A DNA stretch of 51,984 nucleotides. It comes from Bacteroidota bacterium. Lineage in GTDB: Bacteria; Bacteroidota; Bacteroidia; Bacteroidales; ML635J-15. This document shows positions 2,216 to 13,618 of the stretch, in pieces (the first letter of the stretch is position 1; each line of letters begins with the position of its first letter). Position numbers and translations under genes: made by a program. The stretch is from contig JAYENB010000007.1 in the NCBI GenBank assembly GCA_034721855.1, forward strand, positions 38,688-90,671, read 5' to 3'. The notes under the pieces were generated by a model. The model was given only the letters and a program-made list of their open reading frames with translations. It made no database searches and was not told where the DNA came from.

Positions 2216-3358
2216 TTATCGAATAATTTCGCCTGCCCATAATGTTTTCAAAAAATGCTCTACCGGCATGATTTCAATTTTCCCTGTTTTGCGATAGTAC
2301 GTTTCATTACATACTATAATTTGTCTTTTAGTATTGAATTCATCTGAAAACCTTTTTAGTCCTTTCAAATGCTTATTTTGTATGTTGTTGCCTGATTTAA
2401 CCTCAATGGCTACTTGATGATCCCCAAGGATAAAATCAACTTCAACCTGGGATGCAGTATGCCAATAGGTGATTGGATAACCCAAACCTGTATAACGGCT
2501 GTGTACGTGCAATTCATTGTAAATATAATGTTCCAGGGCTTTCCCGAATGCAGGCGTTTTTTCACTTATGTTATGATTGTTAAGTAATACATTGGTGATA
2601 CCGGTATCAAAAAAATAGAATTTGGGGCTTGAAATAATGCGTCTTTTTTGTTTTTTTTTGTATGCCGGAAGAAATCTACCCAAAAGAGTTTCTTCAAGAA
2701 TGTTAAAATATTCTTTTATTGTTACAGAGCTTACGCCGCAGTCTGATGCAATGTTCGAATAATTGACAATCTCAGCATTTGTTAAAGCTACATTTTCAAG
2801 GAAGTTTGTGAATGCCTGCACATTTCTACGTTTTGCTTCCTGGATGATTTCGTCCTGTAGGTAAGAGCCAATGTATGCACTTAACAGTTTTTGAGGATTG
2901 TTTGATAAATAATGTCTTGGTAAAGTACCAAAATTCAGGATTTTATTTAGGTCAAAATCGTTAAATTCCGGATATACCAAAGGATATAATTCATACCTAA
3001 GTGCCCGGCCACCAAGCAGGTTTACATCAGAGCGAAGAATTTTTCGCGGACTGGAGCCACTTAAAATAAATTGCGTGTCTGTGTTCGTCATGAGCCATTG
3101 TACATCATTTAATAAATGCGGAAGCCTTTGAATTTCATCAATGATGACAGGTTTTGAAGGTTTATTTGCTTTTACAATCTGCTTTAGTAAATCCTCTTGC
3201 CGGTTGAACTTTAAAAATTCAGAGTTTAACAGGAGATCAATGTAGATGGAATCAGGAAAAAGTGCTTTTAGTAAAGTTGTTTTTCCTGTTTGTCTTGCAC
3301 CCCACAAAAATGCTGATTCCTGGCCTAAATCCTCAAATGTTTGTCTTCGTTTTAGCAT
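2216..3358 (-). CDS. AAA+ ATPase, DUF4143-type (second paralog)
   Basis: 380-aa ORF with Walker A GARQTGKT and Walker B PVIIDEIQ. Confidence 0.8.
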   Translation of the reverse strand: MLKRRQTFEDLGQESAFLWGARQTGKTTLLKALFPDSIYIDLLLNSEFLKFNRQEDLLKQIVKANKPSKPVIIDEIQRLPHLLNDVQWLMTNTDTQFILSGSSPRKILRSDVNLLGGRALRYELYPLVYPEFNDFDLNKILNFGTLPRHYLSNNPQKLLSAYIGSYLQDEIIQEAKRRNVQAFTNFLENVALTNAEIVNYSNIASDCGVSSVTIKEYFNILEETLLGRFLPAYKKKQKRRIISSPKFYFFDTGITNVLLNNHNISEKTPAFGKALEHYIYNELHVHSRYTGLGYPITYWHTASQVEVDFILGDHQVAIEVKSGNNIQNKHLKGLKRFSDEFNTKRQIIVCNETYYRKTGKIEIMPVEHFLKTLWAGEIIR

Positions 3359-5360: not shown

Positions 5361-6506
5361 TTATTGATTCTTTTCATTTTGAAAGATATTAAAATATTCG
5401 GTAAACATGTATTTCCTGTTTCTTTTGTAACCGGTTAATTCGGTTAATATATTAAGCTCAATTAATTCATTAATAAGTCTGTTTGCAGTAGAAGGGGATA
5501 CTTGTAATAGCTCATAAACTTGTTTTGAATCTGTAATTGGGTTTCTATACAGTTGTTTTAGCAATGTTTGGCCTTTCTCAATTTTACTGCCTAATTTGGG
5601 CAGACGATTTGTTTCTATGTCTGTTTTCAATGCAAGAATATCTTTAAATACCTGAATCGAAGCTTTTGATGTCTCTATGACACCGACTAAAAAGAACTTA
5701 ATCCACTGCACCAGGTTACTTGTCAAACGAACTGTCATTAAGTTGTCATAATAATAGGTTTTGTTTTTCTCAAAGAAGTCAGATAAGTATAAGGAAGGTT
5801 TTTTAAGAATACCATTATTCACCAGATAGAGGGTAATAAGTAACCTGCCTAATCGCCCATTTCCATCTAAAAAAGGATGTATTGTTTCAAATTGATAATG
5901 CATTATTGCCACTTTAATTAAATGAGGAACATGGTGTTTGTCTTCATTGATAAATTTTTCTAAATCGCTCATTAATTCTATTACTTCAGAATGGTGAGGA
6001 GGAATGAAAATTGCATCTTTCAGCGTTGCTCCAATCCAGTTTTGGCTGGTTCTGAATTCACTGGGAATTTTATATTTTCCTCTAACTCCGGATAACAAAG
6101 TTTTGTGGGTGTTTTTTATCAGTCTGTTAGAAATTGGAAGTTTCTTCAGCTCTTTGATAGAACTGTTTATTGCTTTAATATAATTTTGAACTTCAGCCCA
6201 ATCATCTCTTTTTTTTGGATGAATATCTTCCTCTTTTACAAGTGCTTCCTCCATATTGGTTTTAGTCCCTTCAATTCTGCTTGATGTGGTAGCTTCTTTT
6301 AAAATATGCATGGTAATGAAGAAGTCCACATCAGGTATTATTTGAGAAAATGCATTCAATTCACCAATTAGCCGGTTTGCTTCTGCAAGTAGTTTATTTA
6401 CTTCTGGTGTTGATACAATCCATTTGTGATTTATTTTCTCAGGAAAAAATGATTTATATTCTATCTGTTTAACATATTTTCCGGAAACAAAATCTTGCAA
6501 GTCCAT
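5361..6506 (-). CDS. Fic family protein (AMPylase-type core with intramolecular inhibitory helix)
   Basis: HPFLDGNGRLGR matches the Fic motif HPFx(D/E)GN(G/K)R. SSRIEG matches the inhibitory (S/T)xxxE(G/N) motif N-terminal of the core. The C-terminal region is wHTH-like. Confidence 0.85.
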   Translation of the reverse strand: MDLQDFVSGKYVKQIEYKSFFPEKINHKWIVSTPEVNKLLAEANRLIGELNAFSQIIPDVDFFITMHILKEATTSSRIEGTKTNMEEALVKEEDIHPKKRDDWAEVQNYIKAINSSIKELKKLPISNRLIKNTHKTLLSGVRGKYKIPSEFRTSQNWIGATLKDAIFIPPHHSEVIELMSDLEKFINEDKHHVPHLIKVAIMHYQFETIHPFLDGNGRLGRLLITLYLVNNGILKKPSLYLSDFFEKNKTYYYDNLMTVRLTSNLVQWIKFFLVGVIETSKASIQVFKDILALKTDIETNRLPKLGSKIEKGQTLLKQLYRNPITDSKQVYELLQVSPSTANRLINELIELNILTELTGYKRNRKYMFTEYFNIFQNEKNQ

Positions 6507-7931: not shown

Positions 7932-8216
7932 ATGTCACATTCAAAGGTTAAAATATGGGTTCATGCTATTTTTTCAACAAAAAATCGTAAATCGTTGATA
8001 AAACAGGAAATAGAAAAAAAAGTTTACAATATTGTTATGCACGAATTTATTGAACAAAGTTGTTTTGTAGAAATAATAAATGGAATGCCTGAGCATGTTC
8101 ATATATTATTTCTTTTAAATCCTCAAAAAAGTACATCTGATGTAATGAAACAAGTAAAGGGGGCTAGTTCGCATAAAATTAACAATAGAAATATTATAAA
8201 CACAATGCATCCATAA
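7932..8216 (+). mobile_element. IS200/IS605-family Y1 (RAYT-like) transposase, 3'-truncated remnant
   Basis: 94-aa ORF with an HUH motif (PEHVHILF). The ORF ends before the region where the catalytic Tyr helix is expected in full-length proteins. Confidence 0.65.
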
Positions 8217-10120: not shown

Positions 10121-11104
10121 CTACCAAAATAGATGTTTTCCACTTCGTTTTTCATCTAAATATTTCTCATTCTTAAATCCCATACCACTGCTATATTGAC
10201 GATCAAAGATATCTCCCATACTTGGATGAGTTTTTATTACATCAGCATAATCAATCTTTTTTTGTTTCAATTTATCTTCAATAAAAGCTCCACAAATTTC
10301 TAGTTTATCAGAGCAAATTAATTTTTCATGGAGAGTTTCCCTCAATAGTAAGAAGTTTACAAAATCAATTGGTTTTTTCTTTCTTGCAATTAATGTCAAA
10401 ATAAATATCTCAAGATCATCTAATTTAACTGCCCAAGGATAAACATCATCTTCATTTTCTAATTTAATAAGGGTTGAAAGATCATTTTGAACTTGGCCAA
10501 ACGATTTTAGGTTTACAATTATTGAGAAATCTTCTTCATACTGTTCTGTATCAATATTATCGATAATATTTCCATCTTTATCAGTTATTGTTAATGGAAG
10601 ATTTTCAATAAATTTCTTTTCAATTCTGCGTATTTGAGTATAACCGTACCCTATGCAATCTTTAAAATCATCCTTAATTCTTATAAAAGCTTTATCAGGA
10701 TCACGTAATGGTTCTCTTAGTGAATAACCTTTTGCTTCGATGATAAAAGCATATTGTTTCCATAGAAATAAAATATCTTGTTCATTTCCATCTACATAAT
10801 AACTATGATAATATTTAAAGTTGGTTTTAAAGAAATTAGAAAAGAAATCAATTATTCTTTCCTCTACTAAAGCTCCTTTTTTCTTTATATATCTCGTTTC
10901 ATTTTCCTTCGTTCTAGTTATCAATTGTTCGAGAAGTAAATTTATTGAATGGATTACCTGCTTAACTTCAAAAACCTGATACATTCCTCTGCCAGTATCT
11001 ATAATTGGTTTTTCATAAAGAGGGTTTCCTGGTCTTGTTGATGTATAATACAAAAAATCGGATTTTTTTCGCTTTACAGATAATAGGTTTAAAACAATAT
11101 TCAC
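10121..11104 (-). CDS. NERD-like PD-(D/E)xK nuclease-fold protein
   Basis: 327-aa ORF with a GTG start. The segment GALVEERIIDFF...EQDILFLWKQYAFIIEAKGYSL fits the G..gE...D-x(n)-(I/V)E-x-K pattern of NERD/PD-(D/E)xK cores. The gene is AT-rich. Confidence 0.5.
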   Translation of the reverse strand: MNIVLNLLSVKRKKSDFLYYTSTRPGNPLYEKPIIDTGRGMYQVFEVKQVIHSINLLLEQLITRTKENETRYIKKKGALVEERIIDFFSNFFKTNFKYYHSYYVDGNEQDILFLWKQYAFIIEAKGYSLREPLRDPDKAFIRIKDDFKDCIGYGYTQIRRIEKKFIENLPLTITDKDGNIIDNIDTEQYEEDFSIIVNLKSFGQVQNDLSTLIKLENEDDVYPWAVKLDDLEIFILTLIARKKKPIDFVNFLLLRETLHEKLICSDKLEICGAFIEDKLKQKKIDYADVIKTHPSMGDIFDRQYSSGMGFKNEKYLDEKRSGKHLFW

Positions 11105-11239
11105 TTTCTCAATTGAAAGTTCATCAATTTGAATTTCTTTAGGAAAAAAGCTGTCTATTATTCACTTGTCAACAAAGACGTTATAGGCTGTGAAATATAT
11201 TGCATGTTGCCAACAGTACTTCACTTATGGTTGAAATTT

Positions 11240-11650
11240 CTATATTTTAGAAGTATTCTTTTTTAAATCATTCCCTAAACTAGTCATATTAAGGGTAGGT
11301 AGATTTATCGGTTCAAATCCTGAAAGATTTGTTAATGTAGAAATGTAAGCTCTAATGTAAGGGAATAGCAATGCAGGAGCATTGATATAGAATAAATCAT
11401 CTAATTTTTCCAAACCTTCACTATTCTCAAACGAATAGTCTGCAACTGATTCTATTTCTATCTTAAATGATTTATTATCATCTTCAATTTTTACCCCAAG
11501 CTGTAACTGAAAGTTGCTATCTTCTTTATTTATAAAGCCTTTGGGAGCAAAACCTAAAGATATTTTTTTTGATGGAGTTTCTTCGTTTCTTTTTATTAAA
11601 GAACGAATGATTTTAAAACTCTTAAATTGAAATTTTGAATAATTTTCCAT
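11240..11650 (-). CDS. SecB-like chaperone
   Basis: 136-aa ORF. NAPALLFPYIRAYISTLTNLSGFEPINLPTLNM parallels the conserved SecB core (E. coli ...NILFPYAR...FPQLNLAPVNF). The length is SecB-like. Confidence 0.7.
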   Translation of the reverse strand: MENYSKFQFKSFKIIRSLIKRNEETPSKKISLGFAPKGFINKEDSNFQLQLGVKIEDDNKSFKIEIESVADYSFENSEGLEKLDDLFYINAPALLFPYIRAYISTLTNLSGFEPINLPTLNMTSLGNDLKKNTSKI

Positions 11651-11653
11651 AGT

Positions 11654-12031
11654 CTAAGCAGCTAAAGCATAATTGTTAGAATATTGAAAATCAACACTCT
11701 CACTAAACTCAACGACAATAAAGTCAATATTAGTTACTTCATTATGAAAAGTAATTGATTTACCTCCTAATTCAAATTCTGCACTTTTTATCTCAGACAA
11801 AGAACCTTCTGAGATGAATACTATATTTTCATTAGGAAAAAGAGATTCAAATTCTTCTTCAAGTTCAGCTTCAAGAATCAAATACCTTTCATCCTCTTTA
11901 AAAAATTCTAAAGGTGTAACCTCAATTATATGGCTATAAGTATTTGCTCTATATTCATATTGTATTTTTATATCGTTAAATTGAGCAAATAACTGTTCTA
12001 ATTTTTCTTTTATGAACTTCTTTGATTTCAT
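11654..12031 (-). CDS. small acidic protein of unknown family with an ssrA-like C-terminal tail (...SNNYALAA)
   Basis: 125-aa ORF. Its start overlaps the upstream stop (ATGA), and its stop lies 3 nt before the SecB-like ATG. The terminal codons at 11657-11680 decode as S-N-N-Y-A-L-A-A. Confidence 0.7.
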   Translation of the reverse strand: MKSKKFIKEKLEQLFAQFNDIKIQYEYRANTYSHIIEVTPLEFFKEDERYLILEAELEEEFESLFPNENIVFISEGSLSEIKSAEFELGGKSITFHNEVTNIDFIVVEFSESVDFQYSNNYALAA

Positions 12032-12435
12032 ACATTGAATTTTTTAATAATATAAGACCTTATTTCAATTGCTTTATCCATAGCATCATTTCCTTTGTCG
12101 TAATTAACCTCTACATTTTCATAGTCAGATTCAACTCGAAATTGCTTCAGATCATTAATTTTTCTTTTAAAATCTCTACTTTCAAATATATTGGATAAAG
12201 ATTTCAACTCATTTGTAATGTAATTTACAACATATTGATGAGTATTTTGTTTTGAAAAGGAAATATTTGCTGATTGAGATTCATAATCAATATTAAAAAA
12301 ATCCTTTATAGTAAATTTTAATAGTTGAAAGCAGCTATAATATGAGCAATGCACACTAGGAGCAAATAAGTTTTGTTCCAAAAGAACTTTAGCAGCATCC
12401 ATATTAAAGTCCGATTTTTGTCTTAGTTTACTCAT
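12028..12435 (-). CDS. HEPN-like helical protein (candidate toxin)
   Basis: 135-aa ORF. It has an N-terminal pattern A..LL....F..S.....YSCFQLLKF, then ...THQYV..., and a C-terminal LKQFRVESDYE, resembling the HEPN (PF05168-type) layout. This was not verified by profile search. Confidence 0.5.
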   Translation of the reverse strand: MSKLRQKSDFNMDAAKVLLEQNLFAPSVHCSYYSCFQLLKFTIKDFFNIDYESQSANISFSKQNTHQYVVNYITNELKSLSNIFESRDFKRKINDLKQFRVESDYENVEVNYDKGNDAMDKAIEIRSYIIKKFNV

Positions 12436-12445
12436 TGTTGGAACA

Positions 12446-12453
12446 CAAAAGTA
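12446..12453 (-). promoter_or_regulatory. -7 box TACTTTTG, with TTTG at 12470-12473
   Basis: Matches TAnnTTTG 10 nt upstream of the ATG at 12435. Confidence 0.4.
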
Positions 12454-12845
12454 TTATTATTTTTTTAAACAAACAATAAATATTGGTTAATTTTGATTAC
12501 TGCAACAAAGCAGCCAAATCCTCTCGTATTTTTGGCAACTCATTTATCCCCCCCCCACAAAAGTACGTTCATACATAATCGTTTGATGTATATCCACACC
12601 TCTTATGCAGGTTTATTACTCAAATATTATTTATTCAAATAATTCATAAAACAATCTGACTTGCTAAAATAGGTAAAAAGATGACAAGAAAAAATAAAGG
12701 GGATAGATATTACAACAAAAACTTAGAAATTTTTCTTAGAACAGTAACTTAGAAGCCCTTTAATGCGCGGAAGACATGTTCCAACAGAATGCAAATTGAA
12801 AAAAGTTACCATTTTAAAACCTTTGTTTTTGTGCAAATTTTGTGC

Positions 12846-12888
12846 AACTGACGAACGAAACAAGGTCAGAGGCAAAGTTGCCACCTTG
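12846..12888 (+). repeat. 43-nt fragment matching the MITE core (reverse complement of 22355-22397)
   Basis: 39/43 identity: AACTGACGAACGAAACAAGGTCAGAGGCAAAGTTGCCACCTTG versus AACTGACGAACGAAGCAAGGGCAGAGGCAAAGCTGCCACCCTG. Confidence 0.8.
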
Positions 12889-13285
12889 TGCCGCGCTGAA
12901 CATGCATATACAAACCTTTACATGTTTTCCTTATCTATCAACAAAATTTTTGTCAATGCAAGGTATTATCTCAATATTTATTACGCCAAATATACAAAAA
13001 ATTTGCCCTGCTTCATTGCTGTTTAAGTCCTTTCTACTTTCAAAAATGCACTTTTTACTGACATCTTTTGGAATGTTGTTAACAACCCCACTGTCACTGC
13101 CACTCAATACAGACAAACATTTCATTCATCTTCAATGTGTTGTATTTTTATCTGTAAATTTATGTATGTCTTCATCAAAGAAAATGTTTCCCGATAAAGG
13201 CCTCCGGCTGCAATCATGGGATTATGGTTGGAAAATAATATAAGCTTTTCTAAATTTCAGTTTACGTAACTAGTCAGGTACATTT

Positions 13286-13552
13286 AATTGTTACCGCTGA
13301 GACGCAAAGGCGCTAACCCGTCTGTCGCCGGGCAAGCTCTGCCTGCCGGCAGGCAGGGAAATGGAAAAAAAAGAATTAAATCGCTTACCATCAAATAACG
13401 AAAGCACGATGGAACGATAGCGAGAAGGCACGAAGGTGTGAGGGGACGATGTAACGTCTGCATTTAAGTATGCAATCGTGCTATCATGCAATCATGCAAT
13501 CGTGCAATCGTAACTTTGCGGTGAGGAGCTACTTTTGTTGATGCTGATTAGT
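13286..13552. repeat. expanded copy of the hairpin element at 30385-30450, carrying internal palindromes and inverted CACGA arrays
   Basis: The end arms match the compact copy at 36/40 and 17/19. Internal features are an 18-bp perfect palindrome CTGCCTGCCGGCAGGCAG (13339-13356), forward CACGA-type units (13397-13436) and reverse units (13470-13511). Confidence 0.75.
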
Positions 13553-13585
13553 TACCAGTTTACCCGTCAGATGGCAAAAAAATCC

Positions 13586-13593
13586 TATATTTG
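13586..13593 (+). promoter_or_regulatory. -7 box TATATTTG
   Basis: 25 nt upstream of the ATG at 13619. Confidence 0.45.
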
Positions 13594-13618
13594 TAATATC
13601 AAAAAATGACGGTACCCG

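Follow-up and report, generated by a model that had tools for sequence, protein, structure and literature searches.

The stretch analysed here (hereafter the window) is a segment of 51,984 nt of contig JAYENB010000007.1 from a Bacteroidota bacterium, and it carries three small adjacent minus-strand genes that encode, in this order, a HEPN domain protein (135 aa), an acidic protein (125 aa) and a SecB-like chaperone (136 aa), which together probably form a toxin–antitoxin–chaperone (TAC) operon (Table 1). The genes are tightly packed: in the sequence, those of the HEPN and 125-aa proteins overlap by 4 nt (ATGA), while the 125-aa and SecB-like genes are separated by a 3-nt gap (TAG-act-ATG). The GC content drops to 0.25–0.29 over 10.5–12.5 kb, versus 0.40–0.46 in both flanks, and is 0.269 in the three-gene block versus 0.395 in the remaining window. 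An earlier reading, made from the letters of the window alone (hereafter the sequence-only reading), had described four minus-strand open reading frames (ORFs), namely these three and a NERD-like one, along with the overlap, the gap, a block richer in AT than both flanks and a transposase remnant nearby. All of this stands: the positions and lengths match the ORF list exactly, both junctions are visible in the sequence, the GC profile agrees and the remnant yields a partial match to Pfam Y1_Tnp.

Table 1. Features of the window and tail-less homologues of the candidate antitoxin found elsewhere. Positions without prefix refer to the window; those prefixed with L refer to other loci.
Feature	Position	Strand	Basis and remarks
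Candidate HEPN toxin gene	12028..12435	minus	135 aa; ORF, Pfam, model
Candidate antitoxin gene	11654..12031	minus	125 aa; ORF; codons for residues 1–125 at 11657..12031
Candidate antitoxin N-domain (residues 1–90), folded, acidic	11762..12031	minus	AlphaFold, isoelectric point
Candidate chaperone-addiction tail (residues 91–125)	11657..11761	minus	low pLDDT, alignment
C-terminal YALAA (residues 121–125), candidate ClpXP degron	11657..11671	minus	alignment
SecB-like TAC chaperone gene	11240..11650	minus	136 aa; Pfam, PADLOC, PDB matches
Upstream block, operon promoter region	12436..12497	minus	blastn, common to the closest loci
TAcTTTTG, match to TAnnTTTG	12446..12453	minus	read in sequence; starts 18 nt before the HEPN ATG
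NERD-like gene fragment	ORF 10121..11104	minus	327 aa, GTG start
Truncated IS200-like transposase remnant	7932..8216	plus	Pfam Y1_Tnp, profile positions 3–84 of 121
Intact Fic/DOC family gene	5361-6506	minus	within 10 kb of the cassette
AAA_14/DUF4143 ATPase gene	2216-3358	minus	within 10 kb of the cassette
Tail-less antitoxin homologue, 92 aa (IMG/VR)	L037:8001-8279		beside exonuclease and SSB
Tail-less antitoxin homologue, 103 aa	L016:501-812		beside NinG/Rap endonuclease
Tail-less antitoxin homologue, 167 aa (IMG/VR)	L036:8001-8504		unrelated C-terminus
Tail-less antitoxin homologue, 97 aa	L040:7001-7294 (also L041, L042)		near head-maturation protease and DNA methyltransferase

As for the 135-aa protein, its HEPN domain falls within the AF0298-like HEPN-T clade. 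It exceeds the cut-off of the Pfam family PF05168 (27.6 bits, cut-off 22), its AlphaFold model is highly confident (predicted local distance difference test, pLDDT, 95.6) with six helices, and the top Foldseek matches of this model are all HEPN proteins, the best being 2hsb/AF_0298 (template modelling score, TM, 0.73/0.78), followed by 2q00, 1wol (ST0689), 4nqf, 1ufb (TT1696), 3o10 (sacsin) and 1o3u (TM0613). These matches reach a TM of up to 0.78 with a probability of 1.00, but their E-values are weak (0.02–1). Across the family, HEPN partners are mostly basic (median isoelectric point, pI, 8.6). In our HEPN alignments, about 20–25 residues are invariant, including R100, D104, Y105 and H29, the latter within a conserved A-P-S-V-H-C-S-Y-Y patch, while H66 is invariant in one alignment and conserved at 90% or more in the other. 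The catalytic motif Rx4-6H is absent, as the protein reads R100-V-E-S-D104-Y105 and lacks a His anywhere from +5 to +7. According to the reference analysis of the HEPN superfamily, the canonical His is missing or replaced by Asp in the HEPN-T (PF05168) clade of the AF0298/2hsb type, whose members feature a second conserved His located N-terminal to the motif and proposed to be part of an alternative active site. Hence, the missing His is a known deviation of AF0298-type proteins and fits this sub-clade, yet canonical catalysis cannot be assumed. The same analysis cites a genome-wide screen in which HEPNs without Rx4-6H motif still scored as toxins, states that many HEPN domains are non-catalytic and reports that the conserved Tyr of MNT-associated HEPNs has been proposed as a nucleotidylation site. 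From these comparisons, we infer a putative RNase activity relying on R100 and H66/H29, in which D104-Y105 would replace the canonical His.

The closest sequence match of the HEPN protein in the PDB is 9xbd (E 0.007), with S-H and R-x-x-S-D-Y motifs in common. Annotated as ‘HEPN domain-containing protein’, 9xbd has a Tyr at the motif position, where its sister entry 9xbc has a Phe, which suggests that the role of this residue is under test by someone. No publication for either entry was located by a literature search on UPF0332 and HEPN.

The 136-aa protein belongs to the SecB family, not as a housekeeping SecB but as a chaperone of the CmdC (PD-T4-9_C) type. It scores 43.5 bits against Pfam SecB (cut-off 26), and its core ALLFPYIRAY...EPINLPTLN aligns with the corresponding segment of the E. 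coli and H. influenzae SecB proteins, while its PDB matches are SecB 1fx3 (E 6.6e-5) and, more distantly, Rv1957 of Mycobacterium tuberculosis (5mtw_C, E 0.12). It reaches none of the cut-offs of the NCBIfam SecB equivalogs (102.8–277 bits; best score 45 bits vs. 143). In PADLOC, it matches the family PD-T4-9_C, i.e., CmdC, over positions 2–134 of 135 (E 5.4e-30). Since PD-T4-9 has been renamed CmdTAC, the 136-aa chaperone belongs to the TAC class.

The 125-aa protein matches nothing in Pfam, NCBIfam, PADLOC and PHROGs, nor any PDB sequence, even though its family is large: an exhaustive profile search retrieved 1,523 representative clusters (E ≤ 1e-3), of which 912 reach E ≤ 1e-10. It is acidic (pI 4.4; family range 4.05–5.03) and falls into two parts: an N-terminal domain modelled with a pLDDT of about 71–89 in an alpha-beta-beta-alpha-alpha-beta topology, and a disordered tail (residues 91–125) with a pLDDT below 50. 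Foldseek returned no structural match to the model in the PDB at E ≤ 1e-3; the sole significant fold match in any library is A0A8S5SJ98 (BFVD), an uncharacterised Myoviridae protein of 90 aa (E 4e-5; target-normalised TM 0.83; root-mean-square deviation of 1.3 Å over 81 columns). The identifications proposed by the sequence-only reading for the three proteins, i.e., a HEPN-like first protein, a small ssrA-tailed protein of unrecognised family and a chaperone with a SecB core, thus all held up against these searches, the first through Pfam and Foldseek, the third through Pfam, PADLOC and the SecB alignment, and the second through both the lack of a family in any library searched and the near-invariant YALAA end examined below.

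The tail combines a variable stretch with a fixed end. In an alignment of 30 members, Y121, A122, L123 and A124 are invariant and A125 is conserved at 90% or more, while the approximately 35 residues that precede YALAA are variable and rich in indels, with conserved aromatic positions (the aromatic residues of the tail in the window protein are F95, F104, F109, F114, Y116 and Y121); the mean pairwise identity is 0.32 for the tail versus 0.48 for the N-domain. Among 148 representatives (50% identity), 105 end in AA, 86 in [L/I/V]AA and 48 in exactly YALAA. In the window, the protein ends in ...SNNYALAA, its last six residues being identical to those of the Bacteroides SsrA tag, for which a Bacteroides engineering study gives the native sequence GETNYALAA and shows that a GFP fusion is strongly degraded. 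No transfer-messenger RNA (tmRNA) gene, from which the tag of the host could be read directly, was found in the window or in the compared loci. Such ends are known from other TAC systems: Vassallo et al. reported that CmdA, like other TAC antitoxins, has an LAA end recognised by ClpXP and undergoes ClpP-dependent degradation unless CmdC is present, while Mets et al. showed that changing AA to DD renders CmdTA non-toxic. In M. tuberculosis, HigA1 bears a Val-Ala ClpX degron inside its chaperone-addiction (ChAD) region. A ClpX degron is nevertheless not universal among TAC antitoxins, as E. coli HigA ends in LP. Given the LAA or VA ends of other TAC antitoxins, the YALAA tail is strong evidence that the 125-aa protein is one of them; since endings of this ssrA-like LAA kind are established as typical of TAC antitoxins, ours argues for placing the cassette among the TACs without being new as such. 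Moreover, the divergence of the tail tracks that of the chaperone when the HEPN protein is controlled for (partial rho 0.46) and not that of the HEPN protein when the chaperone is controlled for (−0.02), which fits the tail as a chaperone-binding element, these figures being descriptive only since the divergence pairs are not independent.

A second subfamily of the candidate antitoxin, of about 160–210 aa and without ALAA end, occurs in two loci (L020:6001-6534 and L025:6001-6519) and among representatives such as P0288, P0299, P0305, P0308, P0312, P0313 and P0315. Its tail is longer, with a motif of the K-K-D-S-E...S-E-S-F-F type in the C-terminal part, possibly another kind of degron or of element for chaperone binding. 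In both loci, it lies beside the most divergent SecB-like proteins (32–34% identity). Another representative, P0191 (215 aa), matches the antitoxin profile in two stretches, the best one at 109–202, and also lacks the ALAA end.

To place the window among its relatives, one genome per species was scanned, which yielded 25 loci with a relative of the 125-aa protein. The HEPN, 125-aa and SecB-like genes follow each other in the same order and orientation at 23 of them, in hosts belonging to the Bacteroidales, Marinilabiliaceae, Prolixibacteraceae, Marinifilaceae and Flavobacteriales; outside of the Bacteroidota, one locus of Thiohalospira (Gammaproteobacteria) carries all three genes and one of a Chlorobiota member is without the HEPN gene. 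The junctions are conserved as well: among 20 intact cassettes, 17 keep the 4-nt overlap between the HEPN and antitoxin genes and 19 feature a gap of 2–13 nt between the antitoxin and chaperone genes. Such a recurrence of the same order with the same junctions at 23/25 independent loci is far above chance, and the conserved synteny that the sequence-only reading had proposed to look for is thereby established. Moreover, the DNA of different loci (blastn) is similar from a point 0–60 nt ahead of the HEPN start codon up to the stop codon of the chaperone gene, which delineates a conserved unit of about 1.3 kb (about 11205..12497 in the window), and at 18/19 loci the AT content of the cassette exceeds that of its flanks. 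Regarding the surroundings, the three flanking ORFs (≥ 110 aa) closest to the cassette were inspected on either side at 24 loci: these neighbourhoods are heterogeneous, with mostly housekeeping genes and, occasionally, McrBC, methylase, helicase or transposase genes, and contain no conserved fourth gene beside the trio. Altogether, the segment 11240..12497 on the minus strand is a self-contained and horizontally mobile operon. A few cassettes (L026–L028 and L038–L039) are found in surroundings that resemble defence islands, beside genes for a type I restriction HsdR subunit, a caspase-like Peptidase_C14, AAA_13/YobI ATPases and EVE-McrB/McrC.

The genes of the cassette do not decay at random. 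In a comparison of 37 loci, the HEPN gene has a premature stop in L004, L017 and L026/27, a frameshift in L005 and a 5′ deletion in L011; it is truncated beside an IS21 element in L033 and missing in L024, while all three genes are fragmentary in L038/39. Overall, inactivation of the HEPN gene has occurred independently in at least seven lineages. The 125-aa or chaperone gene is damaged solely where the HEPN gene is damaged (L011, L017, L024 and L038/39), and both are undamaged in all of the approximately 24 loci with an intact HEPN gene. This ordered decay, with the HEPN gene lost first, is what a toxin–antitoxin–chaperone dependency predicts.

Taken as a whole, the cassette is in our opinion likely to be a mobile TAC operon, made of a HEPN toxin, a new antitoxin and a chaperone, and acting through abortive infection. 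This proposal is built on direct results, which concern the families of the proteins, their domain layout with the disordered tail, the synteny and coupling of the genes, the conserved YALAA, the mobility and the decay order. The sequence-only reading had already pointed to a TAC-like order and coupling of the genes, with which the families, the synteny, the junctions, the disordered tail and the degron agree. Briefly, the HEPN protein would be an RNase-type toxin using the alternative active site of the AF0298 clade, and the acidic N-domain of the 125-aa protein would bind and neutralise it. The SecB-like chaperone would hold the disordered aromatic tail and thereby hide the ssrA-identical degron, until another client, most likely a freshly synthesised structural protein of a phage, titrates it away. 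In E. coli TACs, the client known to outcompete the tail is a phage capsid or tail protein. The antitoxin would then be degraded by ClpXP via its YALAA end, and the freed HEPN protein may cleave RNA and arrest the cell, resulting in abortive infection.

Several observations weigh against this interpretation. The His of the Rx4-6H motif is absent (R100-x4-Y105), so that catalysis would depend on a proposed alternative site, and the N-domain of the antitoxin has no known fold relative explaining how the HEPN protein would be neutralised. The neighbourhoods of the 24 loci are mostly composed of housekeeping genes rather than being defence islands; the cassette has no match in the PLSDB plasmids and is rare on IMG/VR viral contigs, and annotated phages show just weak SecB-like matches. 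Finally, the decay and coevolution statistics derive from about 25–35 loci that are phylogenetically non-independent.

The alternative that best withstands the data leaves the chaperone-addicted mechanism untouched but assigns it another role than phage defence, be it selfish addiction, stabilisation of genomic islands or a stress response. The prevalence of housekeeping genes around the cassettes speaks for such a role, as do the first description of the M. tuberculosis TAC as stress-responsive and the fact that ordered decay demonstrates a dependency and not a defence function. Yet the TACs that have been tested (two CmdTAC, MqsRAC and E. coli HigBAC) do defend against phage, some copies of the cassette lie beside restriction, McrBC, caspase-like and AAA_13 genes, and phages carry tail-less homologues of the antitoxin domain. 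On balance, we consider a non-defence role unlikely, though worth keeping in mind.

More improbable still is that the 125-aa protein would be an enzymatic antitoxin akin to type VII, i.e., a degenerate MNT relative modifying Tyr105 of the HEPN protein. At face value, several features are compatible with this idea: three MNT chains (6m6w_A, 7ae2_B and 5yep_A) rank among the top 20 Foldseek matches in the PDB; the invariant Tyr by the HEPN motif is of the residue type for which nucleotidylation has been proposed and demonstrated in HEPN-MNT systems; E26, E37 and E75, which are invariant or conserved at 90% or more, lie on or next to three beta-strands of the 125-aa protein; and the nearest PDB match of the HEPN protein exists as both a Tyr (9xbd) and a Phe (9xbc) entry. 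However, the matches to the MNT chains are weak (E 0.12–0.32; TM 0.31–0.34), the topology lacks a helix between the first two strands, neither a G-S nor a DxD motif is present, and no nucleotidyltransferase family of Pfam is found at E ≤ 10 in 30 members. Furthermore, the HEPN gene comes first here, unlike in nearly all MNT-HEPN pairs, in which the MNT gene is the 5′ one. An MNT nucleotidyltransferase is therefore an unsupported identity for the 125-aa protein.

The chances are slim, too, that the HEPN protein is catalytically inactive, binding RNA or a ligand, and that the trio is a chaperone–client module unrelated to toxicity. The missing canonical His and the many non-catalytic HEPN domains would be in line with it, but R100, H29, D104 and Y105 are invariant and H66 is conserved at 90% or more, which matches the alternative site proposed for AF0298, and HEPNs devoid of the motif were still toxins in the genome-wide screen. 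Besides, a selective and ordered loss would be hard to explain for a harmless HEPN protein, and the arrangement of degron and chaperone would have no evident purpose without a toxin. Finally, a reversed polarity, with the 125-aa protein as the toxin and the HEPN protein as the antitoxin (as first predicted for MNT-HEPN pairs), is hardly credible, because the 125-aa gene is still intact in six or more lineages whose HEPN gene is broken or truncated, a state that would be lethal if the 125-aa gene encoded the toxin, and because the 125-aa protein is acidic, bears a degron and a disordered tail, and is encoded where an antitoxin is expected.

In phage-like contexts, the antitoxin N-domain is encountered on its own, devoid of tail, degron, HEPN gene and SecB-like gene (bottom of Table 1); the Myoviridae protein A0A8S5SJ98 mentioned above is counted among these copies. 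A gene of 134 aa upstream of one of them (L040) was considered as a diverged HEPN gene and discarded (hhalign probability 0.15%). It is possible that these tail-less copies are stable antitoxin mimics that need no chaperone and serve in counter-defence; alternatively, they may be promiscuous antitoxin domains paired with other phage toxins, or domains with another function. Along the first line, one might picture a widespread, so far undescribed immunity class of TACs centred on Bacteroidota, combining an AF0298-type HEPN RNase, a new antitoxin fold with an SsrA-identical tail and a CmdC-like guard, to which phages would respond with undegradable tail-less decoy antitoxins; we put forward this broader scenario tentatively, as it is more doubtful than the TAC operon from which it extends.

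The sequence-only reading had also included the NERD-like nuclease gene in the module, a claim that must be abandoned. Homologues of this ORF form 478 clusters, almost all of 566–572 aa. When four of them were searched with tblastn, just residues 216–569 aligned, to 11185..10124 on the minus strand of the window (for the 566-aa one among the four, residues 212–566, starting at 11197); the window has no counterpart of the N-terminal 215 or so residues, and the similarity starts 55 nt after the stop codon of the SecB-like gene. The 327-aa ORF also narrowly misses the NERD threshold of Pfam (22.0 bits, cut-off 22.1). Moreover, no NERD-like homologue lies beside the trio at any of the 25 genome loci. 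Consequently, the NERD-like gene is a 5′-truncated remnant abutting the cassette, neither a partner of the trio nor a fourth component of the system.

Upstream of the HEPN gene, the block shared with the closest loci contains a match to TAnnTTTG, which we take to be the −7 promoter element of Bacteroidota. This match starts at −18 in 12/22 cassettes, including the one of the window, and lies within −30..−12 in 15/22; as a consensus match at a conserved position, it is a candidate promoter element. A scan for sigma-70-type promoters gave 11 sites for 11.9 expected, nothing resembling a terminator was detected 3′ of the SecB-like gene on the minus strand, and the window contains no structured RNA at Rfam gathering thresholds. 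Around the island, a search for direct or inverted repeats and att sites returned just short AT-rich matches of low identity, as could arise by chance. Further upstream, a stretch of about 1.1 kb (12500–13600) has no convincing gene and no Rfam match, but it includes nine consecutive G (minus strand, ~12548–12556) and a 24-nt tandem duplication (CATGCAATCGTGC-like) at 13461–13508. On the other side of the cassette, the transposase remnant, the Fic/DOC gene and the AAA_14/DUF4143 gene hint at a wider mobile or conflict-related region.

If our interpretation is correct, HEPN would be the fifth class of TAC toxins after HigB, MqsR, HicA and CmdT, and an unannotated antitoxin family of more than 1,500 representative clusters would be brought into TACs. 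So far, TAC experiments have dealt almost exclusively with Proteobacteria and Mycobacterium. With the cassette, TACs would reach the Bacteroidota, among them organisms related to gut and environmental lineages. It would also support the view of the chaperone and the ChAD/degron unit as a portable sensor attachable to unrelated toxin–antitoxin pairs. From a practical standpoint, the six-residue match to the tmRNA tag would offer a clean, mutable handle on the trigger mechanism, the tail-less phage homologues would be candidates for anti-TAC counter-defence, and the cassette would be a natural system for asking whether AF0298-type HEPNs without His are active RNases.

Among known systems, the nearest one is CmdTAC (PD-T4-9; E. 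coli ECOR22/O112ab:H26), which is likewise a three-gene operon in the order toxin, antitoxin and chaperone, with a homologous chaperone and an antitoxin of similar size and LAA end (CmdA, 121 aa, vs. 125 aa here). Yet its toxin, CmdT, is an ADP-ribosyltransferase and not a HEPN domain, the N-domain of our candidate antitoxin is confidently folded, and the hosts are Enterobacteria in one case and Bacteroidota in the other. CmdT depends on its antitoxin for folding, and the HEPN protein may do so as well. Accordingly, PADLOC at E ≤ 1 assigns no family to the 135-aa and 125-aa proteins, including the A and B components of PD-T4-9, and the C component alone is matched. HigB1-HigA1-SecB^TA of M. 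tuberculosis (Rv1955-1957), HigBAC, MqsRAC and HicBAC share the same TAC architecture, and HigA1-type antitoxins possess a C-terminal extension with chaperone-binding aromatic residues and a ClpX degron, for which our tail has candidate counterparts; Rv1957, as mentioned above, is distantly similar to the SecB-like protein. On the other hand, the toxins and antitoxins of HigBAC, MqsRAC and HicBAC belong to unrelated families, their antitoxins being DNA-binding helix-turn-helix proteins where ours has an acidic alpha/beta domain without DNA-binding signature, and the degron of HigA1 consists of two aliphatic residues instead of a six-residue match to the Bacteroides tmRNA tag.

The HEPN-MNT systems (type VII; Shewanella SO_3166/3165 and Aphanizomenon) also rely on a small stand-alone HEPN of PF05168, and the AF0298-like HEPN-T clade shows the same combination of a retained R, an absent or replaced canonical His, a second His upstream and a conserved Tyr. 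However, the partner is no MNT here, the HEPN gene is 5′ where MNT usually is, and a SecB-like chaperone is present, while none has been reported for HEPN-MNT. Since the defining components of both CmdTAC proper and HEPN-MNT were searched for and are lacking, the cassette belongs to neither. In the literature accessible without subscription, the published TAC classes that we found are HigBA, HicAB, MqsRA and CmdTA, with no HEPN-type TAC (terms combining HEPN with SecB or TAC; TAC papers since 2024). The sequence-only reading had anticipated as new the combination of a HEPN protein, a SecB-like chaperone and a nuclease neighbour, of which the first two elements remain and the third falls. In principle, a new toxin–antitoxin pair is unsurprising, since modularity and transferability of the chaperone/ChAD units of TACs have been described: the TAC design itself is known, and what is new within it, as far as this literature shows, is the use of an AF0298-type HEPN as toxin class and of this antitoxin family.

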